NCBI GenBank assembly: GCA_000092065.1
Contig: CP000585.1
Reading direction: 5' to 3' (one strand)
Length of the DNA stretch: 64,000 bases
Source: Ostreococcus lucimarinus
Lineage: Eukaryota
Part shown: positions 5,094 through 62,575 of the stretch, piece by piece
How the letters are laid out: each line of letters starts with the position of its first letter
Numbering within the stretch: the first letter of the stretch is position 1
The notes under the pieces: model-generated
Told to the model about the DNA's origin: nothing
What the model saw: the letters and a program-made list of their open reading frames with translations, nothing else
Database searches by the model: none
Position numbers and translations under genes: made by a program

Positions 5094-5186
5094 CGACGGC
5101 GTCGCGAAGTGCTGCCGAAACGTGACGACGTCGTCACGTCGCGTCGCGCCGCCGCGCGGGGGCGATCGCGCCGCCTCGCGACGGCG

Positions 5187-6074
5187 ATGGCGATGCCGGC
5201 GCGCTCGAGCGCGTCGGCGTCGGCGCCGCGCGCGGTCGACGTCCGCGCGAGGCGTCGACGAACGCGGGACGGTGGACGGCGGGCGACGGTGAGACCGACG
5301 GCGACGCGCGACGGCGACGCGCGGGCGCGCGCGCGGGACGAAAACGAGGCGTCGACGTCGATGGGAAGCGTGTGCCTCGTCGGGGCGGGGCCGGGAGGCG
5401 TGGACGCGCTGACGATGGGCGCGGCGAGGGCGCTCGCGAACGCGGACGTCGTCGTCTACGACGATTTGGGTGGGTCTTCCGAGGACGTGCTGGCGCTCGC
5501 GACGAAGGCGAACGCGGAGTTCGTGAGCGTAGGGAAGAGGGGTGGGTCGGCGAAGTCTTGGACGCAGAGCGATATATGCGAGTTGTTGGTGGAGCTCGCG
5601 CGAAGCGGTAAGCGCGTGGCGCGACTGAAAGGTGGGTGTCCGAGCGTGTTTGCGCGCGTCAGCGACGAGATCGCGGCGCTGCGAAAGCATGGAGTGCACA
5701 CGACTATGATTCCTGGAATATCGTCGGCGTTGAGCGCGCCGCTGAGCGTGGGGATTCCGTTGACGGATCGAGAGTTGGGACGGCACTTTTCCGTGACGAG
5801 CGCGCACGATCCAAATTCGATCGATTTTGCCGCGTTCGCTGGAATCGACACGTGCGTATTTCTGATGGTTGGGAGGACACTTCCAATAGTCGTCGAATCG
5901 CTCACGCGGGAAGGGAATAAGTCACCGACGACGCCGTGCTGCGTGATTCGAAACGGGATGCAACCGGACGAGCGTTCGTGGTTCGGCTCGTTGCGGGATA
6001 TCGTCGAGAAAACGTCCGGTGAGTCTCTATCTCCGTGCATTTTAGTCGTCGGAAACGTCGTCACGCTGGCTTGA
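5187..6074 (+). CDS. Uroporphyrinogen-III C-methyltransferase (siroheme branch, CobA/UPM1-like) with transit-peptide-like N-terminus
   Basis: VCLVGAGPGGVDALTMGAARAL...VVYDDL, ARLKGGCPSVFARVSDE and TTMIPGISSA are characteristic class III tetrapyrrole methylase motifs. ATG 5187 (MAMPARSSASASAPRAV...) is a plausible plastid presequence. Divergent from the helicase start 93 bp away. Confidence 0.7.
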   Translation: MAMPARSSASASAPRAVDVRARRRRTRDGGRRATVRPTATRDGDARARARDENEASTSMGSVCLVGAGPGGVDALTMGAARALANADVVVYDDLGGSSEDVLALATKANAEFVSVGKRGGSAKSWTQSDICELLVELARSGKRVARLKGGCPSVFARVSDEIAALRKHGVHTTMIPGISSALSAPLSVGIPLTDRELGRHFSVTSAHDPNSIDFAAFAGIDTCVFLMVGRTLPIVVESLTREGNKSPTTPCCVIRNGMQPDERSWFGSLRDIVEKTSGESLSPCILVVGNVVTLA

Positions 6075-34511: not shown

Positions 34512-34672
34512 ACTGCACCAGGCATAGTCTTGATTAATAATACGTAGAGACGTAGACACGTAAAGACGAGAGAATGCGTCTCTCTGCCGCTCGCGCGCGC
34601 TCGACGCGTCCCGCTCGCCTCTTTCTTCTCCAGAGTTCGACGCCGCGCGTCCTCGCTCGGCGCAACCGCGCC

Positions 34673-36814
34673 ATGGCCGGGTTCTGGCGCCCAGGCGCGG
34701 ACGCTCCCTCGACGTCCGCGCCGTCGACTCTCTTAACTCTCGACGTCGACGCCGATGCCGACGCCACGGGGACGTTGATTCAATTCGAGAAAAATCCGAA
34801 AGCGTCGCTGAGCGCGCGTCGTCGCGCGCTCCCGATCGCGGCGCACGCGGACGAATTGATGTACTGCGTCGAGAAACATCAAACCACGGTCATCGTCGGG
34901 CACACGGGGTGCGGAAAGACGACGCAGATACCGCAGTACCTGCGAGACGGCGGCTGGTGCGGCGGCGGCGCGACTGTGGCGGTGACGCAGCCGAGACGAG
35001 TGGCGGCGCAGACGGTGGCGCAACGCGTCGCAGAGGAGGTAGGGTGTGTGATAGGGGATACAGTTGGGTACGCGATACGATTTGAGGACGTGTGCACGCC
35101 GGGGAAGACGGAGATTAAATTTTGCACGGATGGAGCGCTGTTGCGCGAGCTCGCGGAGGATCCGTTGTTGACAAAGTATTCGGTGGTGATAGTGGACGAG
35201 GCGCACGAGCGCACGTTAGCGACGGACGTGTTGTTAGGATTATTGAAGAAAGTGCAGCGCGCGAGAAGGGATTTGCGGTTGATCGTGTCGAGCGCGACGA
35301 TTCAGGCGGAATCATTCGCGGCGTTCTTTGACGCGAGCGGCGAGGACGACGACGGCGATGGACCTTCGAGAAAGCCCATCATCATGTCCGTCGAAGGTCG
35401 AGCGCACGGTGTGTTGATTCATTATCTGGATGAACCGACCGGAGATTACGTGTTGAGCGCGGTAGAGACGGCGTTGGAAGTGCATCGAAACGAAGGACCA
35501 GGTGATATATTAATCTTTCTCACAGGCGAGGGCGAGATCGACGACGCCGTCAACTTGCTCGAAGAGGAAGCGCGAGAGATGAAACGCGATCCGAGACGGT
35601 CACACGATGCGCTGGATTTAGTGGTTTGTCCACTGTATGCGGGATTAAATCCTGCGGCGCAGTTGGAGGCGTTTCGACCGCCGCGCAGAGGCGCGCGCAA
35701 AGTCGTCGTGGCGACAAACGTTGCCGAAACGTCTGTGACGATTGAAGGTGTCGTGTACGTCATAGATTCATGCTTTGCGAAGCAAAAGGCGTTCGACCCA
35801 GAGCGCGGCATGGAGAGTTTGTTCGTCGCACCCGCGAGCAAGGCGAGTACGAACCAACGCGCCGGTCGCGCCGGTCGCGTGCGTCCGGGTAAATGCTTTC
35901 GCTTGTGCACCGAGATTGACTATCGCTCGTTGGCCGACGTCACGGCTCCGGAGATCGTTCGAAGTGACCTCGCGAGTACGGTTTTGCAGATCAAGGCGAT
36001 GGGTATTGATAATATCATGAACTTTGAGTGGGTGTCGCCGCCGCCCGCGGCGAACATGATCAAGGCGCTCGAGCTTTTATACGCGCTCAGGGCTTTGGAC
36101 GACGACGCCAAGCTCACGAGTCCGCTCGGCGTGCACTTAGCCGAAATCCCACTCGAGCCGCAGCTAGGGAAGATGCTCCTCGTGAGTGGAGAGATGGGAT
36201 GCGTAAGGGAAGCGTTGACTGTCGCGGCGTACATGCAAGTGCAGTCGTTGTGGGTCACGCATCGCGGGCAAAAGAAACGCTTAGATGAGATGCGCGACCG
36301 CTTTGCCGTGGAAGAAGGAGACGCAGTGATGATGTTGAACATCCACGACGCGTACTGTGACGCGAGAAACCAGGCAAAGTTTGCGAGCAACAACATGCTC
36401 AATCATCGAGCGCTGCTTCGGGCTGGAGATGTACGCAGTCAATTGAAAAAGCATCTCGCTAGACTGGGAGTCGTCACGAATTCGTCTTGCGGCGATGATA
36501 CGGTACCAATTCGACGTGCGATTGCTGCTGGGTTCTTTGCTAACGCTGCAACGCTCGCGCCCTACGGTGGCGGCCCCGATGGTTCCGTCTTTCATTCTCT
36601 CCGCGCGATGAGTGCGCGCGCGCGTGCTCGAGAGCTCCGAATACATCCAAGCTCCGCGCTGTTCCGCTCGCGACCGCAATGCGTGGCGTATTGCTCCGCC
36701 GTTCGCACAGATCGCGAGTACATGCGCGACGTCACCGTCGTCGAAGCCGATTGGTTGCGCGAGCTCGCGCCGCACTTCTATCGCGCGGTGAGCGCCAATC
36801 CGACGACGCAATAG
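34673..36814 (+). CDS. DEAH-box helicase DHX35-like
   Basis: GHTGCGKTTQIPQYL, VDEAHERT (DEAH), SATI, FLTG, TNVAETSVTIEGVVYVID and QRAGRAGR motifs, plus HA2/OB C-terminal region. N-terminus MAGFWRPGADAPS matches the FWRPG start of metazoan DHX35. ATG 34673. Confidence 0.85.
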   Translation: MAGFWRPGADAPSTSAPSTLLTLDVDADADATGTLIQFEKNPKASLSARRRALPIAAHADELMYCVEKHQTTVIVGHTGCGKTTQIPQYLRDGGWCGGGATVAVTQPRRVAAQTVAQRVAEEVGCVIGDTVGYAIRFEDVCTPGKTEIKFCTDGALLRELAEDPLLTKYSVVIVDEAHERTLATDVLLGLLKKVQRARRDLRLIVSSATIQAESFAAFFDASGEDDDGDGPSRKPIIMSVEGRAHGVLIHYLDEPTGDYVLSAVETALEVHRNEGPGDILIFLTGEGEIDDAVNLLEEEAREMKRDPRRSHDALDLVVCPLYAGLNPAAQLEAFRPPRRGARKVVVATNVAETSVTIEGVVYVIDSCFAKQKAFDPERGMESLFVAPASKASTNQRAGRAGRVRPGKCFRLCTEIDYRSLADVTAPEIVRSDLASTVLQIKAMGIDNIMNFEWVSPPPAANMIKALELLYALRALDDDAKLTSPLGVHLAEIPLEPQLGKMLLVSGEMGCVREALTVAAYMQVQSLWVTHRGQKKRLDEMRDRFAVEEGDAVMMLNIHDAYCDARNQAKFASNNMLNHRALLRAGDVRSQLKKHLARLGVVTNSSCGDDTVPIRRAIAAGFFANAATLAPYGGGPDGSVFHSLRAMSARARARELRIHPSSALFRSRPQCVAYCSAVRTDREYMRDVTVVEADWLRELAPHFYRAVSANPTTQ

Positions 36815-38023: not shown

Positions 38024-38734
38024 CGACGCAACCGTTTCGCTTCGCAACCGTCGACGCGCGCCGCCGGTCGCAAAAGAAACAGCGCGCGCTTCGCGCCGGC
38101 GACGCGCCGACCGCGCCGCGGCCCGCTCTCGCGCGCTCCCCGCTCGCCGCTCGCGGCGGCCGGTGACGCAGTTCGGTTCCCCGCCTCGCGCGGTGTCCGG
38201 CGCTCCAACCGCGCCGCGGCGCCCCGTCAGGGACGCCGCGACGCGGACCGCGAGCTCGAAGGCGGACGCGCGATCCGCGCGGATGGATTCCGCGGCCGTC
38301 GACGCGTCGCGGACGCGGCACGCGCGCTCGCCCTCCGCGCGGAGTTACAAGCCACCGCGACGTGACCCGGCGAAACGTTCATGGCGCCGTTCGGCGCGCA
38401 CTACGACGATCGAGCGCTAAAAAATCTAGACGGACGCGTCGGACGCCGCGCGGGATGGAAATTACGGGTTTTTCGTGAAGAAGGGAATCTTAAATCGCAT
38501 CGTCGTCGGCGATCAATCTCGCGCGCGCGGACGCGCGAGACGCGCGTCGCGCGCGCGGATCGATCGTGGATCGATCGCTTGGGTCGATCGGGGGTCAAGA
38601 CGCGCGCGATCGGGCGAGACGGGCGCGCGGACGCGAGAGACGCGGCGGTGCGACGGTGATTATCGACGCGACAGTTGTGGGACGCGCGCGCGCGCGACGA
38701 CGACGACGCGCGCGCGGGGGGGGCGACGGGATCG

Positions 38735-41700
38735 ATGACGACGTCGGGATCGACGTGGCGCGCGATACGACGGGGAGGATCGATGCACGCGCCGGCGACG
38801 GGGACGCGGCACGGGTCGATGTCGTCCAACGGCGGGTCGTTCAACGGGACGAGCGGCGCGGCGGCGAACGACGGCGGCGGAGGGTTTCGAGCGGCGGTGA
38901 TCGATGCGAACGAGATCGACGCGCCGCACGTGGAAGCGTTGGTGGCGTCGAAACGCGCGCGGTGGTTGGCGCTGGAGATGGGAGCGAACGATGGGTGGGC
39001 GCGAGGGGCGGAGACGAGCGAACGCGCGAGGGAGCGATACGACGAGGAGGAGGACGAGACGAGACAGACGACGTCCGCGTCGACGTCGACGTCGGGTGAG
39101 GGTGAGAGTGATGCCGGTGCGAACGATGATGTCAGCGAAGATGGGTCGCTGATGCGTTTGTACGACACGGGCATTCGAGGGACGCACCCGCTGCCCGGTT
39201 CGCTCGCGCTTCCGAAGACGCCGGCGAGCGCGTTGGGGAAAATGCCCGCTGTTTCCTTGAGCGCGGCGACGCGCGAAAGGCAAACCGTGAGATTCACGTT
39301 GGAAATCGCGGAGATTTACTTTGAAGTCGGGGCGCTGGAGACCATCGAAGGGACGATGGCGCTTTACGACGTACAAACGCGCACAAAGGTGAGCGAAAAT
39401 TTCCACTTCTCTTGGCCGAATGCAAAACAGAGCACGATCGCGGCGTTCACCGTACCCGCCGAGTCGCTCACGCTCAACATTCGTCTTCTCGTACATTTCA
39501 CTCATCTCGCCGCGGATGAGGGTGGGATCGAGGACAAGGTGTACACGTACAAGGATTTGCGCAAGGCCAAGGTGCATGCCGAGAAGGAGCGGCAACGCGT
39601 GCTCGGTATGGAAGCGCTTCGTCAGCATGAAGCGCAAGCGAGTCAAAAGTCAGCTGCATCAGTGCACTCATCCGACGGCAGCACTCAGTTAGCCGCGAAT
39701 GAGGTCGAGAACCCGAACATTTCCAAGAGGCGGAACACGCTCGCGTGGGCCGTGCTGCCGATTTTCGACGCGCGCGCGGGCGCCGCGCCGGACAGAGCCA
39801 CACTACTCAGCGAAACGAAGTGTAGCGAGATGTACCGTGTGAAAGAGGCTTACACCGAATTCTCACTCATGGAGGCGGCGATCTCGAGCGGGACGAGCCA
39901 CTCTTTGAAGTCTCACAAACCGATTAGATGCAAGCTGGTTTGTCTGTTGAATCCGCTCGACGTGCCCGCGCCGGGCGCGGAGACGAACGCGTTTAAATTC
40001 CCTCCTGGTTTAGTGCACGTCAAAGAATTGCTTTCGTTTTGTCCTCGCACGCAAAATGGTGAGCTCGATTGGGAAACCGCATGGGGTGGCGCCGTAGACG
40101 ACGGTTTGTCGAGAGATTTGTACGTGTACGTCAAGACGATTGACATCGGCAAACGACAAGATCTTCGTGTGCGCATGCAGCTCAGAGACGATGATTTAGA
40201 CATAGACGGTAGAGGATTGCTCGCATTTCCATCACCTTGCGGGCGCGGACTTTGTCGCGAAAGTTGGACGGCGATGAGTCGCTTGCGATCAAAGGGGGGT
40301 GTTTTTTACCACGAGGCGCGAGTGCGTTTGCCGGTGCGATTGAATCCGTCACATCACCTAGTGTTGAGTATTTTTGGAGCACAGAGTGCCTCGACCGGCC
40401 TTTTTAGCGCTGGCGCTGGAGAAGAAGAATTGCTCGGACACTCGGTCATCAATCTCTGCTCGCAACCAGAGACGTTAGCGTCGAAGATTGCAAGTGCGAC
40501 GACGCCCACGGGTGGCGATTTAAGTCTCGTCGCCGTGCGCGAGCTCTTGCCGAAATACTTGCAGTCGAACGTCCGAACGCACATGCCGTACTGGGAAGAA
40601 CGAAAAGAGTGTGTGCATGTGAGACTTCGACTCGCATCTACCATGCACACGGGGGACGTTCACATAGGCGCTCTCTTTGCCGCCTCTGCGGCGTGGTGCA
40701 ACGCGCAAACGCCCGAAACGGAGGATAAGCTACGAATCGCTGTGAGCGAACTCTCTCTCGCGAGTGATCGCGCATTGATTCAACACTTGCCCGCGATATT
40801 GAACTTGTTGGTGAGTTTGACGCTGCGAATCGCCGATCCAGAAGTAGAGATGGACCAAACAGAGGAACAACTTAGCTCACGTTTGAGCAAGGATTCGCGA
40901 AGAGATGATGATGACGACGCAATTTCCCTCGCCTCAGCCGCACTGAGCGACGATTTGGCGGGCAGCATCGATACTATCGCGAACAAACAGCAATCACTCA
41001 TTTCGTCGCTTTCGAAGAACGAACGCGTTGATGAAACTCAAGACATCGGAACCTTGGCGTTCCACACCCTTGTGCGTGTCGTGGCCGCGGTTCAACGCGT
41101 CGACCCTGGCCCGAAGCCTGCCGTCGCCGGTGTCGTGAGTCATAGTCCTCCTCTTGAAGCTTATATTACACTCGCCTTCGGTTCTCTCGAACGGTCGTCA
41201 AGCAAACAGTTGACAAAGTTACAAACGCTCGGGACGTCGCGAAGCAACGTCCCAGTGCACGCTGTCCTTGCCAAGCGATATTCAGCCGTGTTGGGAGCAA
41301 TACGAGAGTCTTACATTCCTTACGAAGAGGCGTTGTCTATGTCGTGGTTCTTTCTCGGTATGATATACCGTGCCATTGCGCTCGACCGCGCTCAGTCTCC
41401 GAGCGATACGATTTCTATGGAACACGACGACGCGGCGCTAAGACAAGTTGTCGACATCCTGTCGAATGAAGTGAAGACTCGCGGCGAGCGCACGTCGCCC
41501 TCGAACGCCGATCTCGAGCAGGCGAGAAATCTGAACTGTGGGGTCGCCATGTTCTTAACAGCGTTATTCACTGTTCCCGGGATCAAGAAGCAAATGGACG
41601 GTGCGAAAGACGTCAAAACTCTGGGACGCGCTGGTCCGCTTGCGCCGTTGGCGACGACTCTCGCGGCGTTGCACGTCAAGAGTCTCGGCGAAGGCAACGC

Positions 41701-44700
41701 TGTGCACACAGCGTTGTTGCGCGAGTTCTTCGATACTCTGTGCGCATCACCGGTGATACTGGACATCATCACAGCATCTGCCGTCTATGAAGGTAAGAAT
41801 GGTTGGACTCAAGAGACGGCAAAGTTTAGCGCCGGTGACGTCCTCGTCAACGCCTTTACTGATGCAATGGAGTCAAATTTGCTGACAATCGATCCCATGC
41901 GACCGCACGGCGTCAAAAGAGCCGAATGCGCGACTCGGATTATTGCGTCAGCACTCACGAGGCATGCATGGGATCGCGCGTGGCAGTCCACGGGCGCACG
42001 TCGATCCATCGCCGCCGCGTACGCGCCGCTCCTGCGCTTACTCATCGCGCAATGTCAAACCATTGAAACCCTACCCCTAGTGGCACGCAGAGACGCTTTG
42101 GTGAGCATTCTCTCATTAGCTCGCGATTCCGACGCGAATAAACTTTGGACTTGGCTCAGTGACGACGCCTCACGAATGAAACACTTCGTGAGCATCCTTT
42201 CGATGGCGGCTAAAGACTTTGCCTACGAGCGCGACGAAAAGGGAGCGTGGTCGCCCGCCGGCCCGGTGTCCGTAGACGTCTTGGATTCTCAAATCGTTTC
42301 GGACAGACGCATGGGCGCAGGTCATCTAAACACATGCGTGTACATGATCGTTTTGCGTCTGATACGCGAATGGCACGCGCGTGGTAGCTCGAAGTCGAAC
42401 TGGGGCGTCATACGCGTCGCGGCTCGAGCGATGGGCTATCGCAGCAAAGTTCCAGATCCAAATGAGACGGTGCAGATCACGAGGTCTGTGTCATTATCTC
42501 CATCGGAGTCGTTATCGTTCGACGATTTTGCCAGAGAAGGTACGCAGGGCGACGAGGAGTGTGAAGTTGAATCGTTCAACGCGTTGGAGGGCGTCTTGGG
42601 CGTGATGCTCGCTATTTTATCGAGGCCGCAGAGCGCTGCCGCTTGGAAATTGTCGGCGCCAATTTTGAATTCACTCTTAAGAGAACACAGAAAGGTGCTC
42701 ATGGCGTCGTTGCACCAACGTAAGGATAATGTTCCGATAGAAGATTATCCACCGAAGCCCGCGAAGGCACCAGGAGTAAGTCCGTACGCATTTTTACAAG
42801 GTGCCGCCATCGCGGTGTTCAAAGCCGCGGCGCGTCCACCGCCCACGCGTGATCTCGCAGTGGCAAGTTTACGAACGATGCTCGAGGCCGCTGTGGATAT
42901 CTTTGGTACGAGTGAACAACTGTGTCCGACGCTGATTTACGCCATGCATGCCGCGTTCTTTCCGTTGAGACCCATTTCATGCGCAGATGGTGTGGCAATT
43001 TCCTTGGAGGCTCTCAAATCCGGCAACGAGGTGAGCCCGGCGGGTTGGAACAACTCGGTCAAGGAAACGCTGCAAACGCTTCAGTATGCGGAGATCTGCA
43101 TTCGAAAATTAGCAAACGCGACGATGAATCCAAGTTCGATGTTCGATGTATCGTGTGCGGTTGAGCTCGAGTCATCGCTTGCGCTCGCTCTCAAGTCTTC
43201 TCCCGCGGCGCACGTCAAGGTGTTGCATTCGTTGTCAAATAGACTCGCCGCGAACGAGCACTGGGTGGAAGCCGCGGAAGCATCGACGGCTGCTGGCATC
43301 ATCGCTATGCAAGCTTTCTCAATTGCCGCTCCTACGTTGTGTGTGTGGTTCGATCACGATGTGCAGTCATTGCGAGACTCATTCTTTGCTTTACCCGACG
43401 GCGCATCGCCAGTTCCTGCTGTCGCCGGCATCCGCTGTGGCACGGAAGAAATCAGCGAGGCACAAATATTAACTCATCTATCTCGAGCGGTGGACTTGTT
43501 TACCAAGGGTGGTCACCTCGAAGCTGCAATCCGCGTCAACGAAACCGCGCAAATCGCATGGGAGACGCACAGACAGTTTGATTCGCTGAGCGAATCACAC
43601 GCCATGATGGCTGAACTTTTCCGCCGTCTCGACGCGACATCTGGCGTTGGCGATCCCAAGCGCTACGAATGGGACATCACGAGTAAACCACCACCTGAGT
43701 CGGCGACATTTTGGCGTATACGTCTACTCGGTGATGTGTGGGATAAAATGCAAGGTTTGGAGTGGGTCTATCGCGAGAGCCAAGATCGAACGCTCGGCGA
43801 CATGAATAAAAAGATCATCTCGCAACTTTCGCCGTATCTTCCTTCAGGTACACGCGTCACGGCAATGTCAACGAATGCAGAAAGTGTGATCGAAGAAGGA
43901 TGTGCCGGTGTGCAAATAACAGCGGTGCAGAGAGACTTAGAGTCGATTAATCAAGCCGCCATTGGTGGCGGCGTTGGCGGCACTGGTTTCACACGGTGTG
44001 GGCGGTTCATGTTTGACACTCCAGTTTTGTTCACCGAAGACGGTGAGGTCAGTCAAGGGCAAGGTGCAGTCGTCGCATCCCTTCGTTATCAAGGACGACG
44101 CCGTACGATTATCACGGTCGATGGGCAGTTCCCAAGTCTTCTCCCCCGTGCGCCCATTATTGACACCACTGTCGAAGAAATGAACCCGTGTCAGAGCGCG
44201 ATTCAAATGCTCGAGGAGCAAACCATCGCGTTATTAGCAGCGGCGCACGCTCGTAGACCTCACGCTGAGCTCTTACAAAGGTTACTACAAGGATCTCTTG
44301 CGGCTGGCGTGAACGGCGGCGTACCGTCGTTGATACATTCATTTTTTCGAACCGAATTGCCGAGCGCGGTAGCGTATCATGGTGAAGCGATGCGTGAGGC
44401 TGAATTTTTGACGCCTGCGCGCGCTGTCGAAGTTTCGCCAGAAACACCGACTCCATCATCGCGCCATTCGACGCCGAGGTTACCGATGATTCACCACAAG
44501 CGAGGCTTGAGTGAAAATGCCGTCCCCATGGGTGCCGGCATTCCGCTCGACACGCCGACGAGCGCATCGTATCCGACGCCATCACCGAGCGCAAAAGCAC
44601 CACCACCGTCTCCAGCCTCGGTCGCAAAATCAGTGCTAATAACGCCCATCTCTACAACAACGCTATCACCGAGCACGCCGGCGCCACCACTATCGAGATC

Positions 44701-44902
44701 AGATAGCCTGGGGTTAGTGCAAGCGCTTTGGAAACTTTACCGAGCGTGCGTGAAAGTTTTTGAGACACACCAAAAGCTGGAGCAAGCGGAACATTTGGAG
44801 CGGTTGTTCGAGAGCGCGATTCAAGATTTGCGCGTAAGCATCGAATCAGTGGAAAATGACTTGGAGTTCGAAGAAGCTACGGACGAGATCGCGTCGCCGT
44901 AG
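38735..44902 (+). CDS. DOCK-family Rho/Rac guanine-nucleotide exchange factor (SPIKE1-like), ~2055 aa
   Basis: N-terminal DHR-1/C2-like region. C-terminal DHR-2 with diagnostic blocks TFWRIRLLGDVWDKMQGLEWVYRESQDRTLGDMNKKIISQL and RCGRFMFDTPVLFTEDGEVSQGQGAVVASLRYQGRRRTIITVDGQFPSLLPRAP. First ATG 38735 (the ORF-track start 38675 is TTG). Confidence 0.75.
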   Translation: MTTSGSTWRAIRRGGSMHAPATGTRHGSMSSNGGSFNGTSGAAANDGGGGFRAAVIDANEIDAPHVEALVASKRARWLALEMGANDGWARGAETSERARERYDEEEDETRQTTSASTSTSGEGESDAGANDDVSEDGSLMRLYDTGIRGTHPLPGSLALPKTPASALGKMPAVSLSAATRERQTVRFTLEIAEIYFEVGALETIEGTMALYDVQTRTKVSENFHFSWPNAKQSTIAAFTVPAESLTLNIRLLVHFTHLAADEGGIEDKVYTYKDLRKAKVHAEKERQRVLGMEALRQHEAQASQKSAASVHSSDGSTQLAANEVENPNISKRRNTLAWAVLPIFDARAGAAPDRATLLSETKCSEMYRVKEAYTEFSLMEAAISSGTSHSLKSHKPIRCKLVCLLNPLDVPAPGAETNAFKFPPGLVHVKELLSFCPRTQNGELDWETAWGGAVDDGLSRDLYVYVKTIDIGKRQDLRVRMQLRDDDLDIDGRGLLAFPSPCGRGLCRESWTAMSRLRSKGGVFYHEARVRLPVRLNPSHHLVLSIFGAQSASTGLFSAGAGEEELLGHSVINLCSQPETLASKIASATTPTGGDLSLVAVRELLPKYLQSNVRTHMPYWEERKECVHVRLRLASTMHTGDVHIGALFAASAAWCNAQTPETEDKLRIAVSELSLASDRALIQHLPAILNLLVSLTLRIADPEVEMDQTEEQLSSRLSKDSRRDDDDDAISLASAALSDDLAGSIDTIANKQQSLISSLSKNERVDETQDIGTLAFHTLVRVVAAVQRVDPGPKPAVAGVVSHSPPLEAYITLAFGSLERSSSKQLTKLQTLGTSRSNVPVHAVLAKRYSAVLGAIRESYIPYEEALSMSWFFLGMIYRAIALDRAQSPSDTISMEHDDAALRQVVDILSNEVKTRGERTSPSNADLEQARNLNCGVAMFLTALFTVPGIKKQMDGAKDVKTLGRAGPLAPLATTLAALHVKSLGEGNAVHTALLREFFDTLCASPVILDIITASAVYEGKNGWTQETAKFSAGDVLVNAFTDAMESNLLTIDPMRPHGVKRAECATRIIASALTRHAWDRAWQSTGARRSIAAAYAPLLRLLIAQCQTIETLPLVARRDALVSILSLARDSDANKLWTWLSDDASRMKHFVSILSMAAKDFAYERDEKGAWSPAGPVSVDVLDSQIVSDRRMGAGHLNTCVYMIVLRLIREWHARGSSKSNWGVIRVAARAMGYRSKVPDPNETVQITRSVSLSPSESLSFDDFAREGTQGDEECEVESFNALEGVLGVMLAILSRPQSAAAWKLSAPILNSLLREHRKVLMASLHQRKDNVPIEDYPPKPAKAPGVSPYAFLQGAAIAVFKAAARPPPTRDLAVASLRTMLEAAVDIFGTSEQLCPTLIYAMHAAFFPLRPISCADGVAISLEALKSGNEVSPAGWNNSVKETLQTLQYAEICIRKLANATMNPSSMFDVSCAVELESSLALALKSSPAAHVKVLHSLSNRLAANEHWVEAAEASTAAGIIAMQAFSIAAPTLCVWFDHDVQSLRDSFFALPDGASPVPAVAGIRCGTEEISEAQILTHLSRAVDLFTKGGHLEAAIRVNETAQIAWETHRQFDSLSESHAMMAELFRRLDATSGVGDPKRYEWDITSKPPPESATFWRIRLLGDVWDKMQGLEWVYRESQDRTLGDMNKKIISQLSPYLPSGTRVTAMSTNAESVIEEGCAGVQITAVQRDLESINQAAIGGGVGGTGFTRCGRFMFDTPVLFTEDGEVSQGQGAVVASLRYQGRRRTIITVDGQFPSLLPRAPIIDTTVEEMNPCQSAIQMLEEQTIALLAAAHARRPHAELLQRLLQGSLAAGVNGGVPSLIHSFFRTELPSAVAYHGEAMREAEFLTPARAVEVSPETPTPSSRHSTPRLPMIHHKRGLSENAVPMGAGIPLDTPTSASYPTPSPSAKAPPPSPASVAKSVLITPISTTTLSPSTPAPPLSRSDSLGLVQALWKLYRACVKVFETHQKLEQAEHLERLFESAIQDLRVSIESVENDLEFEEATDEIASP

Positions 44903-44983: not shown

Positions 44984-47900
44984 TCAACCAAAGACGAACT
45001 CCCAGTTTTCTTCCTTGTCCGAATCGGATGCGTCGTTCACCGTCGTTGTCGTGTCGTCAAGCGAAGCAAAGACGTCGGCCACGCTTGGACAATCTCGAGC
45101 CCGATGGCCGTGCTGCTGACAAATTTTGCATGTGTCCTCGTCGAACGAACAATCGCGAGCGAAGTGCCCAAGCTCACCGCATCTACGACATTTGTCCGTC
45201 GGTTTCGGCCCTGGTCGCAGCTCTTCGGGTCGATTGTCGGGATATAAGCAGTCCTTTGCCCAATGGCCTTTGACACCGCACCTATTGCAAACATCTTCTG
45301 AACGCGACGTAGCTTTGCGTTCACGCGGACTCGAGTTCGGCGACGATTCGTTAGACAGCTTAAAGTCTTCGAATGCCACCTTCCGGCGAACTTCGTCGTC
45401 CGAATTCATCAGTCTGAATTTTTTGGTGTGCGCGTCAGCGATAATCTTTGTTTGTTTCATCGTTGACGCGGGCGTCGTCGACGTGGGCGACTTCGCGGGA
45501 GAAACACCTGATTTGTCCGGAGTTCGCGGACTCGCGCCGCCGCGATTGACAACGTGGTATTCGACGACGTCGCGACCGATGCAACGTTCGAAAATCACAC
45601 GCGCCACGAAACAAAGCGGGACGTTTCCGCTCGACACGTTCGTACACGTGAACCGGCCGTGGAAGACGATGTTCGCGGATGCGTCCATGTTAGCATCCAA
45701 ATCAAACTCTCGCGTCGGCAAACGCTGAACGTACAACAACCGGTCGTCGTGCTCTGAGCCGATGAAGAGCATCCCCGGATATTTTGCCGGTAGATGATTC
45801 GTGCTCAAGCGGCTCTCAGAAGTATTCTTAAACGACAGCTTGACGTCGACGCTGTAGGACTCCTTCGACATGGCGTGATGCGTCATTTCAACCTTGAGCT
45901 CGGATGGAAAATCCTTTACGTCACCTTGAAGGGTGTTGCCAAACGGAAACGACTTGCCGAGCTTCATTTCGATGCGACGCGGATCTGCGTCTTCAACGTC
46001 TTCGAGCGTCATAATTCTAGCTTCAATGAGCTTTTCGATAACTTTTTTCATGCGCGAGTGCTTGAGCTGTCGAATTTGCACTTTCGTGTCCGGCCACATG
46101 TGCACGTCGAGACCTTTGGCGAGCGAAAAGGCGTTCGCTGCAGCGGTAAACGTCAACGTGGATTGATAGTACTCTGACGCCGCGCGCATGATGCGAGTTC
46201 CGAGCTGAAGAACTTTATCACCTTCCATTCGCATCGACGGATGCGAGAGCGTGATGCTCGGTTCGACCACGTCAGTTAAAATATACTGCGCCAAAAGATA
46301 CAGCTTTTCGCCCGGCGTACGAATTACCTTCGCTAAGGACAACTTTTGCGACTTTCCAGTAGTCTCTTGCACGGGAAAGCGAATAATCTTTTGATCTGTG
46401 TTCAACTGCTTCAACAACTTCCTTTCATCTCGGCGAAGCTTGATGTCTTTGAACTCGTAACTCTCACACAACATTCTTAAAAGATCCGCGTACGACGGTG
46501 TCGCGACGTTTCGCATGATGTTCTTCATCGTTTTGAAGCGCAAATAACGAAGAGACATGATGTCTCCGGCTTTGAGCGGTTGAAGCGCGCTATTTCCTAC
46601 CACGGCGCACATTCCTGACGCAATAAGCTCATCCAAAGTCGCCTTGATTAACCGCTTCACGTGTTCTGTCACCGTATCATCGTTCTTAATTCCGTACTTT
46701 CTTGGTTCCGCGCAAACGCGAATATAGTAATACGTGCTTTGCACCCACTCCAGGACGTCGTCCACCGTGTTCACAGTTCGACAGCTTATTTCAGCGTTTA
46801 AGTACTCAGGCAGCGATGAACCGAGACTTGACTCGAGCGGATACTTGCCATGAACTAATCCCTCGTAGCGCGATCGCAAAGAGTTCTTCGTCATCACCAC
46901 CGCCACGCCCTCGGTGTCGAATTGAGGTCGCCCCGCGCGGCCGATCATCTGAAGTAGGGTGTCCATGGATATTTCCTTGTACGCGCCACCACCGTCGTAA
47001 ATATCCGTACCAGCGACGACGCACAAGTACGCTGGAAGATTAACGCCCACAGCTAAAGTGCTCGTACTGCACAAAACCATAATAGCGCGAGAGCAAAACA
47101 ATCCCTCGACCAACTCGCGATCGCCTCGTTCCAGCCCGGCGTGATGAAACGCTACGCCGGCGGTGATACACTCAGCAAGATGTTTGTTCTGCGCTTGCAT
47201 GGACGCTTCGAGCAAGAATTGGGAGAGTTGTGGGTTTACGAACTGTCTACGAGAGTCCACCACGAGCTGCTTCGCCGTCTGCTGCGCGTCATTGCGACTG
47301 CCCAAAAACACGAGCGTCTGCTTGCCGCGATAGAATTCCCGAATCACCGCAAACACTTTTTGCTTGAGATACTTGTTGAATAAAAAATCGCTCGTTGTGT
47401 CCGGAAAACTGCGCACGTACGTCTGTAACTTGACAGGTCGAAACTCTTCACCGAACACAAACGTGCCATCGCGATTGGCGCCGAGCCAATTCGCGAGGTT
47501 TTCAATGTTCGGAATCGTCGCACTCACGGCGCCAAAGCGAACGTTTCGCAAGTGCGATTGCAATAGAGCCGACGACTTGCTCAGCAACTTTAAACGACTA
47601 ACAATGGCTTCCAAACACCCTCCACGAATGTCACCGATGAGATGCACTTCATCAATCAACACCGCGGCGACGTCGCTGAAGAACGACATCCCGCCGCGGT
47701 TCGCGTCCAGACGAGTCACGCGGTCGAATTTTTCCGGCGTGGCCAAAATCGCATCGACATTCTCAATCTCCCCCCACACGTCCCCACCAAAATCGTTATC
47801 TCCCGTCAACTCCGCAAACGTGATTCCGATCCGGCCTAATCGTTCTCGCCATTCGCGCGCCTTTTCGCTCACCAAAGCCCGACTCGGCGCGAGATAAATC

Positions 47901-48483
47901 ACCTTTCTCCGCCCTCGCGCCGCGCTCAATCCCCCCTCCGTCGCGTTCGGTCCTCGCAACGCCGCCAACATCGCCAACTCAAACACCGTCGTTTTCCCGC
48001 TCCCCGTCGGCGCGCCTGCGTTCGCGTTCGACGCGCGATCACGCGTTCATTCGTCAGTCCTTTCCAAAACGAGGCACTCGCCGCGCGTCTCGCGTTCGCG
48101 TCGCGTCACGCACTCATCACGAAGCTCCGTCGCGTGTTCACCAAAAACTCGAGCATCTCGCTCTGAATGCTGTTGAAATACCTACGACGCGCGCGTCGTC
48201 GCGACGCCTTCGCGTCAGTCCGTCGCGTCGCGCGCGACACCGTCGTTCCCGCGCGACCGTTGCGAACGCACTTGAAATCAAACGCTCTGGCCGTGTCTAA
48301 AGGTTCTATGTCCGTCGTCGCGCGCAGCGCGTCCCGACGCGGACGCGCGTACATGACGCGTCGCGATGATTTCTTTCGTTCGCGCGCGCGCGCGCGTCGT
48401 CGCGCGACGCGCGTCGTCGTGTGCGGACCGCTCTTTCCCCTCGCGCGAAGTGCCGAGTCTCTCGGAACTGGAGACGAGTCCAT
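44984..48483 (-). CDS. MER3: MER3/HFM1-type Ski2-like DNA helicase (meiotic crossover helicase) with three C-terminal CCHC zinc knuckles, 2 exons: join(complement(48113..48483),complement(44984..48014))
   Basis: Exon 1 ends ...RYFNSIQSEMLEFLVNTRRSFVM at A|GTGCGT. Exon 2 begins after ACGCAG| giving VMSAPTGSGKTTVFELAMLAAL (motif I). DEVH (LIDEVHLIGD), a Sec63 domain, and CNRCGVKGHWAKDC / CRRCGELGHFARDC / CKICQQHGHRARDC knuckles follow. The exon-1 start is uncertain (ATG 48483 or 48354). Confidence 0.75.
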
Positions 48484-48570
48484 CTCGCTGAGTCGTGACT
48501 CGTCAAAATCAAATCGACGTGAGGAATTCGCGCGTCGAGTCGACACACGGCGACGCGCGCGCTCGACTCG

Positions 48571-50313
48571 ATGCGCGCGCGACGCGAGACGACGACGGAC
48601 GACGCGAGTCGCGCGTCGGACGCGCGCGACGACGCGTCGACGCCGGAGACGTCGGCGAAACGCGACGCGCGATACGAATATGAGATCGCGTTGGGGAGCA
48701 GTGGATGGTTGTTCGTGTATTACGTCGGCGTCGTCAAGGCGATGCGCGAACGAGGGATGGCGAGGTGCGCGTTGAAGATGTTTGCGCGGTGCGCGCGCGG
48801 TTCGGAACGCGACGGCGCGCGAGAGGGTGGTTCGGTGGCGTAAGATGGGGACGCCGACGCCGGACGACGCGTCTCGCGCGACGACGGATGACTGACGAAA
48901 CGGCGGCGATTTTACGATGCGCGCAGTAAAACGAAGGTGTACGGGACCTCTGGTGGGGCACTTTCGGGGGCGTTGTTGTTCATGGACTGCGATTTGGACG
49001 CGTTGGCGCAGTATGTGTACATTTGCGCGGCGCGAGCGCGGCGGTCGGTGTTGGGGGCGTTTCAACTGCGCGCGTACTGTCGAGGCGCGATGACGGAGTT
49101 TTGTGATCCCAAGGCGCATGAGTTACTGTCCGGGAGGTTTGAAGTGTCGATCACGAGAATACTGCCGTCGTGGAAGAATCTACGAATCAGTTCGTTTCCG
49201 ACGTATGACTTTTTGATTCAGGCGTTGTTGTGCTCGGCGTGCATCGTGCCGCTGAGCGGGTTGCCGATGTGGTTGCGAGGTTTCGGTTTGTGCCTGGACG
49301 GTGCTGTGACGGACATGCAGGTTTGGAAAGGGTTTAAGAAAGATGGCACCTTCAGCAAGTTGCATTGCAAGGAGGCGAACCCGAACATCGTCATCGTCAA
49401 TCCATTTTATTCGTCGCGGGCGGACATCAAGCCGAGCAAGTACATCCCGGTTTGGTGGTGCTTTTACCCGCCAGAGCCGTACAAATTGAAGCAGCTCTTC
49501 GAGATGGGATACGCAGACGCGCACGATTGGTACGAGCGCACGCACGGCTTAGCGAAAACATTGAAGTCGTCGCCCAAAACGCGAGCGGTGGGCAGCGACG
49601 ACGGCGCTTCCGCGGAAGACGAAGAACCGCCGCGAAGCTGGGCGACAGACTGTCAAGAGTGGGCGAGCCAGAGCGCAGAGACGGCGGCTCGCCGCGCGGC
49701 CGCTGCGGCTGAATCCGCGCGTCGTGCGGCGGCAAAACACGCCGACGAGTTTGGATCTTTCATGAAGCACGAAGCCGAGCTCGTGACGCGCATGAGTTTC
49801 AAAGCAGCCGAGGTTGCGTCCGCGGCGGCGCGAAGCGTGAGCGAGATGAAGGACGACAGAAATTTCGCAGAGCGCGCCGACGCCGCGGCGCACGCCACCT
49901 TAGACGCGTTTGTCGTCGTCGGCAAGGGTACCATCATACCCTTCAGATTGGTTCTCAAAATTGCCGCCTGTTTGCTCGTTTACATGGAGCTCGTAGTTCA
50001 AGCGTTCGTCGCCTTTGTCGGCGCCACGGTGGCGTGCATCTTTCCGGGTAAAGTCGGTCGACAGGGCACTGAGTTGTGGCACAGGTGCCGGGCATTTTCC
50101 CAACCGTTGCCGCGTGTGTTGCTCCAAGCCGTACCAGGAATCAAAATTGAGGCGAAAATCAACGAACGTACCGCTAAACAGCTCGGAGAGCTGTCCGCGT
50201 TGTACCGTTTGCTGTGTTATCTCGTGCACATGGAGGAGCGCGAGTTCGAGATTCTTCGAAAACGACTTTCGCAAGGCAATCTAAGCGCGCTCGTAGACGA
50301 CGTTAAAACGTAG
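48571..50313 (+). CDS. Patatin-like phospholipase domain protein, 2 exons: join(48571..48764,48927..50313)
   Basis: Exon 1 carries the oxyanion-hole block EIALGSSGWLFVYYVGVVKAMRERGMA and ends AG|GTGCGC. Exon 2 follows GCGCAG| and continues S-KTKVYGTSGGALSGALL (the GxSxG lipase motif). Long C-terminal extension with predicted helices. Confidence 0.7.
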
Positions 50314-59128: not shown

Positions 59129-62100
59129 ATGTCGCGGCGCGTCGACGCGATGCGCGACGCGTGCGAGACGTGGCGGGAGACGTTCTCGACGACGCACGGG
59201 CGAAGCGCGACGCGCGCGGACGTCGAGCGCGACGCGAACGCGCGATTAATGTTTCGAGCGTATAAAAATGCGAGAGACGGACGAGGGGGGGGCGACGACG
59301 ACGGCGCGAGGGACGCGGCGCGCGCGACGCCGAGGAAGAGGACGACGCGAACGTACGGCGAGATGCGCGAGATGCTGCGCGAGGGGGGGGAGAGCGATGG
59401 GGAGAGCGATGGGGAGGCGATCGAGGCGACGCCGATCAAGACGCGCGGCGACGGCGACGGCGACGGGACGACGCGAGCGAGCGACGCGCGAAGGTCGCCG
59501 AGATTGCTCGAAAAGCGCGCGAAAGGCGCGAACTGGGACGGGCGGGACGCGCTGCGGGAGATGGGGGGGAACGCGACGGCGGAGGGGGGGGGGGCGAGCG
59601 GGGCGAGGGCGAAACCGGCGTGCGCGCGGCCGCTGACGTGGACGGACGCGGAGCCGAGCGCGGGGGGGTTTAAATCGAGGCTCGCGAGGAGAGCGGGCGC
59701 GGGTGGAGAGGGCGGGTTCGCGGCGGTGAAACGGGCGCGAGACGAGGCGATCGAACGCGGCGGTGGGGTGGAAGATTTGCTGTGCGAGGCGACGGTGGCG
59801 GCGATGCGTAACGAGGCGGCGGCGCCGAAGAAGGCGACGATGGAGTTGAGCGTGAGCGCGATGTTGAAGCAGGACGGTTCGAAACGGCGTAAGAAACCTG
59901 CAGAACGATTCGTGGGCGCGGCGACGAGCGCCGGCGTCGCTCGTCGCGCGGTGACGTCGACGAGCGGCGCCGCGAGCGAGGACGCGGCGCCGAAACCGTC
60001 AAAGACGGCGGCGGAGATCCGCGCCGAGTTCGAGGCGGAGAAGGCCAGGGTGAAGGCGATGTCTGGTAAAGGTAACTACGTCAAGACGAACCTCAAACGC
60101 ACGTGGAAGTCCAAGGTGAAAAATGGCGCGCGCAAAAAGGCGGCGCAGCACTATCGATTCGGCGGCGGACGACGTTCAAAGAACAAGGCGGAGGATTACG
60201 AGGCGAAGGATAGAGATCCCAACGCACCGCCACCCGAGGCGCCTTCCGTGTGGGCTTCGGGAGAGTATCCACTCGAGCCTCCCCCTGAATGCGCGAACGC
60301 GACGGAAGACGAGAAATTGACGCCGGCGAAGAAGGCTTTGCGAGCGCGAGAAGTCGCAGACGGCATCGCGCGAGAGTACATCACGGCGGCGGCGGCGGAG
60401 AGCGCCAGAGCCGAAGCCGAGCGGCGAGCAAAGTTAGAAGTAGGACCAGAGATGCAAGCCGCGGTTTTGCGAGCGAAGAGCGATCCTAGCGAAGCGAATC
60501 TCACGGAAGTTCTCAATCGAGGATTCGGTCACGAACAGTTTCGTCCTGGACAACTCGAAATCGTTCAACGCGTGTTGCGCGGAGAAAACACGTTGGCGCT
60601 TTTGCCTACGGGTGCGGGGAAGAGTCTTACGTACCAGCTTCCCGCGTTACTGTTGCCCGGGCTCACCATCGTCATCTCGCCTTTGCTCGCGCTCATGGCG
60701 GATCAAATGGATTCTTTACCTCCGTCGCTTCCCGGCGGAGCTTTGCGAAGCGACATGGATCGGAGGGACATGTGGGAGACGCTCACTCGCTTGCGCGCGG
60801 GAGAACTTAAAGTGCTATTCGTATCTCCCGAAAGACTGCTGAATGAACACTTCGTGAATGATTTGCAGAACGTACCCGGCGGCGTTTCACTGGCGTGTAT
60901 CGATGAAGCGCATTGCGTGAGCGAATGGTCGCACAACTTTCGACCGGCATATCATCGATTGGGCCGCATCTTGAACGATCGAGTTCAAGCGCAGACCACG
61001 CTCGCGCTCACCGCGACGGCGACGAAGAAAACCGAAGTGTCATTGATCAAGCAGTTGGGTATCCCCAGCGAAGGCGTCATGCGAAATGTTCGAGTGAGAG
61101 ACAATTTAATTTTGTCCGTCATGCGCGTGCCCGACGTGGCGCGCGAAAGGACTCTGTGTCACATGTTGAAGCACGATGAATTGTTGCAAGAGGGGAGCAT
61201 CATCGTTTACACCGCGACACAGCGGGACTCCGAGCGCGTGGCGAGTTATCTATACAACGAAGGCATCAAGGCGAAAGCGTACCACGCAGGTCAAGAGCCT
61301 GCGCAGCGGAGACAGACGCAAGCTGAATTCATGATGAGCAGAGTACGCGTCGTCGTCGCCACAATCGCGTTCGGCATGGGTTTAGACAAATCCGACGTAC
61401 GCGCGGTGATAAATTTCTCCCTGCCGCGATCTCCCGAGGCATACATCCAACAAGCGGGGCGCGCGGGACGCGACGGAGCTCCCGCGGCGTGCGTCACTTT
61501 TCTCGATCCAAAGGATTATTTACGCTCGAGATCGCTGACATTTAGCGACGGAGTGGACCGACCTTCCATCACGAGACTTTTGCAATCTGTCTTCGAATCC
61601 GGCCCCGTGATGAAAAAAGCTAAAGACGAAGCGGAGTGGACACCGTGCGTGGGTGCGTTATCCGCGAGTGAGATGGAAATCAAGCTCGACATGCGCATAG
61701 AAGCTATCGAGACTGTGCTTTCGTGTTTGGATCTATGGGGTGAAGGTCTCATTGATATTCGTTCAAAAGACCCTTCGTCGGTGAACGAACTCGACGCCGC
61801 ACACGCCAAAGGTCTTATTCGGATCTTGCCGGATATTCGTTCGACGTGCGAGGCACAATTTTACGGGCGTTCGCCGGCAGAAATCGGCAAAGACTGCCCT
61901 CTCGCTGCAGCCATAGTGAAGCTCGTGCCAAAGCCGAAAGCGTCGATGTACAAATTCAAGATTGTTGACGCGTGCATGCACATGCAAACCGGTTTCGAAG
62001 ATGTCGCATCGCAGCTGAAGGCCATGTCGAAGAATGATAACGTGACGTACACGCTCTCCGATCGAGCAGTTGGTTTTGAAATCGTCCGCGCGCCACCAAA

Positions 62101-62575
62101 GGATATCATTCCTCTCGCGAAGGCACTCGCAGACCATTGCTCGGAGATTGAAGCGTGCTCGGTCGGGAAATTAGACGCACTGTACAACGCCATGGATGAA
62201 GCCGCTAACGCGGAGGACGAAGAAGCCCAAGGCGAGCACCTGCGCCAGTGTTTAGCAGAGTACCTGAACGAAGATTCCGACATGCTCCCGTCGCCGCCCG
62301 AGTGCGTCAAGCAAGAGTCGCAGCTCTTGGCGCCCGACATTAAAACTCTCCTCGCGCACAGAAGCGGTGGCAAGGTTGGCGGAGCGGGGATGATGACCGC
62401 GCGCGCCATTGCGCGTGTTCTGCACAAGCTCCATTCTCCGGCTTACCCGAGCAAGGAGTGGTCGCGACATCACACCTGGGGCCGACACGCTGAGGTTGAC
62501 TTTAAAGTCATCCTCTCTCGCGCTGAGGAGGCAATCGCGAAGGCGCGCGGGATCGATACAGGCGCTCTCAAGTAA
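59129..62575 (+). CDS. RecQ-family ATP-dependent DNA helicase with long basic N-terminal region (RECQL4-like)
   Basis: [36 protein letters not shown], DEAH ([19 protein letters not shown]), TATAT, and helicase C ([18 protein letters not shown]...AYHAG...RQTQAEFM...[43 protein letters not shown]). Lys-rich N-terminal ~400 aa; no obvious HRDC domain. Confidence 0.8.
   Translation: [1148 protein letters not shown]

Follow-up and report, generated by a model that had tools for sequence, protein, structure and literature searches.

The gene analysed here lies on the minus strand of contig CP000585.1 of Ostreococcus lucimarinus (GenBank assembly GCA_000092065.1), within a stretch of 64 000 nucleotides that is referred to below as the window. 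It encodes a protein of 1060 residues (aa) that is very probably the O. lucimarinus orthologue of MER3/HFM1, a single-cassette member of the Brr2-like branch of the Ski2-like superfamily 2 (SF2) helicases, with a meiotic crossover role inferred from its relatives. The gene is already known: it is present in RefSeq and UniProt, and the O. tauri orthologue has already been named MER3. A first-pass annotation made from the window sequence had described the gene, its domains, a 98 bp intron, C-terminal zinc knuckles and the MER3/HFM1 interpretation, all of which stand; its 5' end had to be revised.

The last base of the stop codon is at 44984 and the initial open reading frame (ORF) comprised 1000 codons (44984..47986). 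It is preceded by a short ORF segment encoding ...YFNSIQSEMLEFLVNTRRSFVMSA, with a gap of 98 bp between the two. A three-exon model rebuilt in the window yielded a 1060 aa protein identical at every residue to XP_001418083.1 / A4RXZ9_OSTLU (O. lucimarinus CCE9901), an entry that is included in the closest database cluster (99% identity). The parts of the coding sequence (CDS) and the adjoining upstream DNA are as follows.

48355..48483, minus strand: 5' extension of 43 codons in the first-pass model; not conserved and absent from the NCBI model
48272..48354, minus strand: CDS exon 1, ATG at 48354..48352, encoding MYARPRRDALRATTDIEPLDTARAFDFK and ending in phase 2; start and peptide shared by four related loci and O. 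tauri MER3
48182..48271, minus strand: intron 1, 90 bp, GTGCGT...CGTAG, CTGAC branch point at -37; in frame and stop-free in O. lucimarinus
48114..48181, minus strand: CDS exon 2, encoding YFNSIQSEMLEFLVNTRRSFVMS in the Q-motif region
48016..48113, minus strand: intron 2, 98 bp, GTGCGT...CGCAG, CTGAC at -42; position kept in five species
44984..48015, minus strand: CDS exon 3, including the stop codon at 44986..44984

The gene model was compared with four syntenic loci of related picoalgae (62–71% protein identity), which carry a patatin-like gene upstream and a DOCK-like gene downstream. Introns 1 and 2 occupy identical codon positions in O. lucimarinus and in the four loci, and both have GTGCGT-type donors, YAG acceptors and a CTGAC branch point 19–42 nt before the acceptor in the loci compared. 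The equivalents of intron 1 in the four related species measure 80, 71, 64 and 92 bp; none of these lengths is a multiple of three and each sequence holds one or two in-frame stops. Removal of intron 1 brings back the family-wide F-x-F-[KR]-Y-F-N spacing ahead of the Q motif. From the ATG onwards the four related loci share the start peptide M[FY]ARxR..LRATxDxEP...F[DPE]F[KR]; in one of them (L005) a stop codon is found five codons upstream of the conserved ATG, and the O. tauri GenBank MER3 protein begins with the same peptide.

The 98 bp intron (48113..48016) splits ...SFVMS from APTGSGKT, as had been annotated at first pass. The 5' end given in that annotation (ATG at 48483, one intron, 1133 aa) is wrong: the start is at 48354 and there is a second intron, of 90 bp. 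The 1133 aa single-intron model was rejected on the stops and frameshifts that the four relatives show at the position of the 90 bp intron and on the lack of conservation of the upstream codons. The public model starts at Met44 of the longer version and splices out the extra 90 bp between ...FDFK and YFNSIQ; intron 1 had been taken as coding because in O. lucimarinus it is in frame and stop-free. The segment 48355..48483 is probably non-coding and would correspond to the 5' untranslated region or promoter. The practical yield is thus a corrected reading of the 5' end, on which the public O. lucimarinus model is right.

Intergenic and intron DNA has a G+C content of ∼61% with CGCG-type runs, compared with ∼53% for coding DNA (composition of 48001..50000). 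In this GC-rich non-coding DNA long arginine-rich ORFs stay open on both strands, for example at 48106..49119 (minus strand) and 48167..48775 (plus strand), and this led to the wrong start codon being chosen and concealed intron 1. Two side observations concern the models of relatives. In the MER3 orthologue at locus L006 the inferred donor of intron 1 is GCGCGT and not GT, which would make it a GC–AG intron or place the boundary a few bases off. The O. tauri GenBank MER3 model (OUS47812.1, P0402) has the conserved Met start, reads through both 5' introns and is missing the YFNSIQSE block; it is probably mis-modelled at its N-terminus.

The domains of the protein, numbered on the 1060 aa model, were located with Pfam and an AlphaFold2 model.

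47498..48171, minus strand: RecA1 (DEAD) domain, aa 32–223 (PF00270, E 2.4e-26)
48004..47990, minus strand: Walker A motif GSGKT, in RecA1
47653..47642, minus strand: DEVH motif, in RecA1
47524..47516, minus strand: SAT motif, in RecA1
46925..47188, minus strand: RecA2 (Helicase_C) domain, aa 327–414 (PF00271), with motif VI QMIGRAGR at 46951..46928
46601..46834, minus strand: winged-helix domain, aa 445–522 (PF23445, E 8.9e-14, SNRNP200-type; AlphaFold2 model)
45548..46579, minus strand: Sec63 unit, aa 530–873, with helical ratchet, helix-hairpin-helix and immunoglobulin (Ig)-like beta sandwich (aa 757–873) (PF02889, E 5.3e-25); predicted local distance difference test score (pLDDT) mostly 85–95
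45305..45535, minus strand: predicted disordered linker rich in Ser, Pro and Thr, aa 878–954 (pLDDT <50), with the conserved stretch KKFRL..DDEVRRKVAFEDF (tail alignment)
44987..45010, minus strand: acidic/aromatic C-terminal peptide ENWEFVFG, aa 1053–1060; kept in relatives with and without knuckles

The protein thus consists of a single Brr2-type cassette in which RecA1, RecA2, the winged helix, the ratchet, the helix-hairpin-helix and the Ig-like domain (the last three forming the Sec63 unit) occur in one copy each, and the helicase motifs GSGKT, DEVH, SAT and QMIGRAGR are all intact. Pfam had matched the same domains on the 1133 aa numbering (DEAD at aa 105–296 and Sec63 at aa 603–893, together with Helicase_C, the winged helix and three zf-CCHC units), which bears out the Ski2-like helicase and Sec63 domains proposed at first pass. 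The full-length AlphaFold2 model (mean pLDDT 77, predicted template modelling score 0.70) is ordered over aa ∼30–875; disorder is predicted for the linker at aa 878–954 and for the final 30 residues, and confidence is intermediate over the knuckles. In Foldseek the model superposes on one Brr2 cassette over ∼890 columns (E 5e-53). The same single-cassette Pfam architecture was found in five named HFM1/MER3 proteins (gar, oyster, Saitoella, Mesostigma and chytrid). The FNSIQSE/GSGKT block that had been regarded as diagnostic of MER3 is a Q-motif/motif I form common to all Brr2-like cassettes, although its exact wording, YFNSxQSE, is MER3-like.

Assignment within the Brr2-like branch was based on scores per single cassette. 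Raw hit lists are misleading because the two-cassette ASCC3/SLH1/Brr2 proteins sum two domain scores. The scores over one cassette were as follows.

Related green algae: about 600 bits
Land-plant MER3 / RCK / DExH17: about 540 bits
Mesostigma: 464 bits
Animal HFM1: 395–415 bits
Fungal MER3 (Saitoella): 405 bits
Best of 65 two-cassette proteins: 327 bits (median 300 bits)

Plant and algal MER3 proteins together range from 530 to 610 bits and no ASCC3/SLH1 cassette exceeds 327 bits. Over the helicase core only, the N- and C-terminal cassettes of human Brr2 gave 268 and 188 bits, respectively, compared with 321–347 bits for animal HFM1 and about 412 bits for plant MER3. Trees were built by neighbour-joining from Kimura-corrected distances with 200 bootstraps. 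In the first (583 columns, full cassette) the MER3/HFM1 proteins and the window protein were separated from the N- and C-terminal cassettes of ASCC3/SLH1 in 200/200 replicates, Viridiplantae were recovered in 172/200 and the internal topology matched the species tree; in the second (439 columns), to which the N- and C-terminal cassettes of human Brr2 were added, the same split was again obtained in 200/200.

A profile of the winged-helix–Sec63–Ig region was searched exhaustively against 1.84 billion representatives, and the top 150 matches were all single-stretch proteins. Ten of them were looked up. Informative names were attached to seven, four being animal HFM1 (oyster, scallop, gar and toad) and the others Saitoella MER3, a protein of Mesostigma and a 'DNA 3'-5' helicase' of Salix. 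A chytrid protein had a generic Sec63-domain name only, and no Brr2 or ASCC3 name occurred among the ten. A word-indexed search with the same profile gave fragments of plant MER3 only; animal and fungal proteins were not among its matches. Within the O. lucimarinus cluster, several near-identical proteins from metagenomes bear the Joint Genome Institute (JGI) label 'ATP-dependent DNA helicase HFM1/MER3'.

These results bear directly on the possibility that an RNA-helicase paralogue of the Brr2, ASCC3/SLH1 or Ski2/Mtr4 type has been mistaken for MER3. The best matches among solved structures, by sequence and by fold, are indeed ASCC3, SLH1 and Brr2, but this follows from the PDB, in which no Mer3/HFM1 chain was found by sequence and fold searches; summed two-cassette scores of ASCC3 likewise interleave with MER3 in the raw hit list. 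Two tandem cassettes in ∼1700–2200 aa are the trait of Brr2, ASCC3 and SLH1, whereas the window protein has one cassette in 1060 aa with a single domain match, and the per-cassette scores (395–610 bits for MER3/HFM1 against at most 327 bits) and the 200/200 split both separate it from them. Ski2 and Mtr4 are characterized by an Arch/KOW insertion in the winged helix and by lack of a Sec63 unit, which is not reported for them (PMC10946056); the window protein has the unit, and both align to its RecA2 region only (62–76 bits). A paralogue is therefore effectively refuted, and the first-pass assignment to MER3/HFM1, which best matches to Brr2, ASCC3 or Ski2 were to have overturned, is upheld.

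The gene is intact and under purifying selection. There are no stops or frameshifts over the 3.2 kb CDS, and the ORFs called in at least five related species are likewise free of them. Comparison with the genes of four sister species gave proportions of nonsynonymous and synonymous differences of pN = 0.19–0.25 and pS = 0.69–0.77, and the ratio of the corresponding rates (dN/dS) was about 0.09–0.12 where calculable, with synonymous sites at or near saturation. Within the species only eight differences were found over four metagenome contigs, which is too few for dN/dS. The copy had been called intact at first pass, in agreement with these values and with the presence of all helicase motifs. 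That the gene is a decaying remnant of a sexual cycle since lost, or an incipient pseudogene, is disfavoured and is the least probable of the readings considered here: nothing points to it beyond the lack of observed sex, and the unbroken CDS, the intact motifs and the dN/dS values, even with saturated dS, speak against it.

Beyond the linker the protein carries three zinc knuckles, each of which fits CX2CX4HX4C exactly.

45248..45289, minus strand: CCHC knuckle 1, CNRCGVKGHWAKDC, aa 960–973
45149..45190, minus strand: CCHC knuckle 2, CRRCGELGHFARDC, aa 993–1006
45089..45130, minus strand: CCHC knuckle 3, CKICQQHGHRARDC, aa 1013–1026; absent from O. tauri and two related clusters

The motifs start at aa 960, 993 and 1013 and account for three zf-CCHC (PF00098) matches, with a whole-protein E of 1.3e-15 and 57 bits against a cut-off of 20.8, so that the three C-terminal knuckles noticed at first pass are real. 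Knuckle 3 has no Gly after the second Cys, unlike knuckles 1 and 2, and is also the copy missing in O. tauri; it may be the least constrained of the three. Knuckles were counted in relatives as exact CX2CX4HX4C motifs.

O. lucimarinus and two related clusters: three knuckles
O. tauri and two related clusters: two knuckles
One related two-cluster clade (P0007/P0008; perhaps Bathycoccus, a guess from its lower GC content): none
Micromonas pusilla and relatives: none
All plant MER3 proteins examined: none
All 146 other MER3/HFM1 representatives: none

In the tail alignment the knuckles form an in-frame insert between the linker, K[KR]F[RK]L..DDEVRRKVxFEDF, and the C-terminal peptide, [ED]NW[ED]F[VI]F, and both flanks of the insert are retained in knuckle-free relatives. 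Among the sequences compared, only the Ostreococcus lineage carries the inserted knuckle array, and the array is not a hallmark of MER3. Where two knuckles are present, the alignment shows knuckle 2 contributing its first half and knuckle 3 its second half to a joined unit, a pattern suggestive of deletion between repeats with fusion of the two. When the knuckle tail by itself was used as query, the matches were limited to fragments of this gene from metagenomes and two weak knuckle proteins and did not reveal the origin of the insert, and no published link between Mer3 and zinc knuckles was found in a literature search.

CCHC knuckles are a hallmark of retroelement Gag proteins, and a weak Gag-type Pfam match (zf-CCHC_5) was obtained below the cut-off; the tail might accordingly be supposed to be a Gag fragment, a fused neighbouring gene or a product of mis-assembly. 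One unbroken ORF, however, spans the Ig-like domain, the knuckles and the conserved C-terminal peptide, and because knuckle-free relatives have this peptide too, the knuckles represent an in-frame insert within the protein. Four independent metagenome contigs of the species and five related clusters carry the same tail, and only 81 bp separate the gene from the stop codon of the convergent DOCK-like gene, leaving no room for another gene. An artefact of this kind is highly improbable, and the tail is treated here as a genuine part of the MER3/HFM1 orthologue.

A different Cys/His element is found in many animal and fungal orthologues, where the motif CxHxCxxKxxCxHxCC lies 40–100 residues past the Sec63 unit; Mesostigma has a variant. 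The motif was present in 49 of the 372 proteins compared; these 49 all came from the MER3/HFM1 representative search or its cluster members, and the named ones among them are animal HFM1 and fungal MER3. Although the motif is strongly conserved, and an NF-X1 type had been suspected, it matched no Pfam family in the HFM1/MER3 representatives P0235–P0352. The clinical literature on HFM1 places a 'zinc finger motif' around human C1157 and Q1164 (PMC8383409), and the position of CxHxCxxKxxCxHxCC in the proteins compared would fit this element. The motif of animals, fungi and (as a variant) Mesostigma may be ancestral. The Ostreococcus knuckles occupy a comparable position but are of another type and were added later.

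Short aromatic peptides close many of these proteins: FSSIFDGIF in animals, FLGFxSVFSFL in plants, SVFSFW in Mesostigma and ENWEFVFG in the relatives of Ostreococcus (proteins P0235, P0240, P0251, P0079, P0090 and P0216). At least three aromatic residues occur among the last ten in 18 of 72 long representatives, against a background of 2.9%, and the peptide may be a conserved docking motif. A bolder proposal, which we hold only tentatively and consider rather doubtful, is that the knuckle array functionally replaces the Cys/His motif by providing zinc-dependent single-strand binding, or that the aromatic C-terminal peptide is an undescribed docking motif for a partner of MER3/HFM1. If true, the array would be an undescribed module replacement in a core crossover helicase. 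Only two details appear to be unpublished, the knuckle insert and the C-terminal peptide found across eukaryotes; both are modest, and they offer small leads on the contacts of the tail with DNA or partners.

By analogy with the yeast Mer3, Arabidopsis RCK/MER3, rice and mouse HFM1 orthologues, the protein would be loaded on early intermediates of meiotic recombination and work there as a 3'-to-5' DNA helicase (PMC2488364, PMC3605105). It would extend and stabilize D-loops and single-end invasions and so lead to ZMM (class I, interfering) crossovers in a cryptic sexual cycle. The three knuckles, judged by the general behaviour of CCHC units, could add flexible zinc-dependent binding of single-stranded nucleic acid and might help to hold the helicase on the strand that is displaced or invading.

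Several points weigh against this account. The trees were distance-based (neighbour-joining) and not maximum-likelihood, and Brr2 was represented by one species only. Meiotic specificity, crossover function and DNA rather than RNA helicase activity are assigned from orthologues only, and the proposed role of the knuckles is an analogy. The O. lucimarinus protein does not contain CxHxCxxKxxCxHxCC; the land-plant MER3 proteins checked and the Micromonas-group representatives P0009–P0015 lack the motif too, and for that reason it is not universal in the family. Pfam scans of 20 long ORFs in the 64 kb window detected no other ZMM gene or recognizable meiotic gene. Finally, sex has never been directly observed in Ostreococcus (PMC8557840).

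The last point is also the starting point for a reading in which the gene is MER3/HFM1 by descent but acts mainly outside meiosis, for example in mitotic recombination or repair or in a knuckle-aided role linked to RNA, so that its presence would say little about sex. CCHC knuckles are typical of proteins that bind RNA or single-stranded DNA and occur in no other MER3/HFM1 protein examined, and meiosis-toolkit genes support sex without proving it (PMC2488364). Mutant phenotypes of MER3/HFM1, on the other hand, are restricted to meiosis in every organism studied (PMC3605105, PMC2488364), and both population recombination and mating-type loci have been reported in Ostreococcus (PMC8557840). The catalytic core follows the MER3 pattern, and the knuckle-free orthologues (the P0007/P0008 clusters and Micromonas) are otherwise collinear with the O. 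lucimarinus protein. A mainly non-meiotic role is on balance unlikely, and the meiotic crossover helicase remains the preferred interpretation.

Meiosis genes have been described in Ostreococcus since 2006–2007, and such genes, recombination signatures in populations and candidate mating-type loci have all been reported for the genus (PMC8557840; also PMC2488364, PMC11603280 and PMC11106453). MER3 has been explicitly sought in O. lucimarinus by others (PMC6652019); no published table listing MER3 for this species was found in the literature search. The suggestion at first pass that an intact copy points to cryptic sex is sound but had already been published for the genus (PMC8557840, PMC2488364). 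An intact MER3 under purifying selection is one more gene of the ZMM pathway for a case that inventories of meiosis genes, population recombination and candidate mating-type loci already support, and it adds little beyond confirmation. O. tauri is amenable to gene targeting, and with a means of inducing sex a knockout could tie the gene to recombination.

The surroundings of the gene are as follows. A DOCK-family gene of ∼2075 codons (38675..44902, plus strand) converges on the MER3 gene with 81 bp between the stop codons, and the order patatin-like gene, MER3, DOCK is kept in the related metagenome loci L001–L008. Three other SF2 helicase genes lie in the 64 kb (3354..5807, minus strand; 34574..36811, plus strand; 59129..62572, plus strand): a DEAD-box protein, a DEAH/HA2/OB-fold protein and a 1148-codon ORF with DEAD and Helicase_C domains. 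The 20 long ORFs scanned with Pfam comprise housekeeping genes only, including TFIIF-alpha, DEAD and DEAH helicases, a major facilitator superfamily (MFS) transporter, purple acid phosphatase and V-ATPase H, together with a pentatricopeptide repeat (PPR) protein, a GlmS-like enzyme, ribose-5-phosphate isomerase, a bicarbonate transporter and NIP7.

Among known systems, the combination of an SF2 core with an array of CX2CX4HX4C knuckles is also seen in knuckle-bearing helicases such as the invertebrate Vasa/GLH germline proteins. These differ in belonging to the DEAD-box family, in carrying the knuckles at the N-terminus and in being RNA helicases, and there is no evidence of a common origin with the O. 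lucimarinus protein. Each cassette of Brr2 and ASCC3/SLH1 has the same fold as the O. lucimarinus protein (Foldseek E 5e-53) at 22–27% identity, but these are RNA helicases with two tandem cassettes and extra domains and are separated from it in 200/200 replicates. Animal HFM1 and fungal Mer3 share the cassette and the clade (395–415 bits) and have a zinc-binding-type Cys/His element at a position comparable to that of the knuckles; the element is CxHxCxxKxxCxHxCC and not CX2CX4HX4C, and the long N-terminal extensions of these proteins are missing in O. lucimarinus.

Plant MER3 / ROCK-N-ROLLERS (Arabidopsis RCK = DExH17; rice MER3) has the same single Brr2-type cassette, with 34–36% identity over ∼75–80% of the length, and is the sister of the algal protein within Viridiplantae. 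Both have the YFNSxQSE...SAPTGSGKT block and an aromatic C-terminal peptide and both do without the HFM1-type Cys/His motif; the plant proteins have no CCHC knuckles, and their tail sequence is unrelated except for the last few residues. The direct orthologues are those of O. tauri (OUS47812.1 / XP_022839086.1, deposited as 'meiotic recombination protein MER3'), with 64% identity and two knuckles, and of Micromonas pusilla (XP_003057342.1, deposited as 'DNA helicase'), with 38% identity and no knuckles; both have start and C-terminal peptides of the same type as the O. lucimarinus protein.

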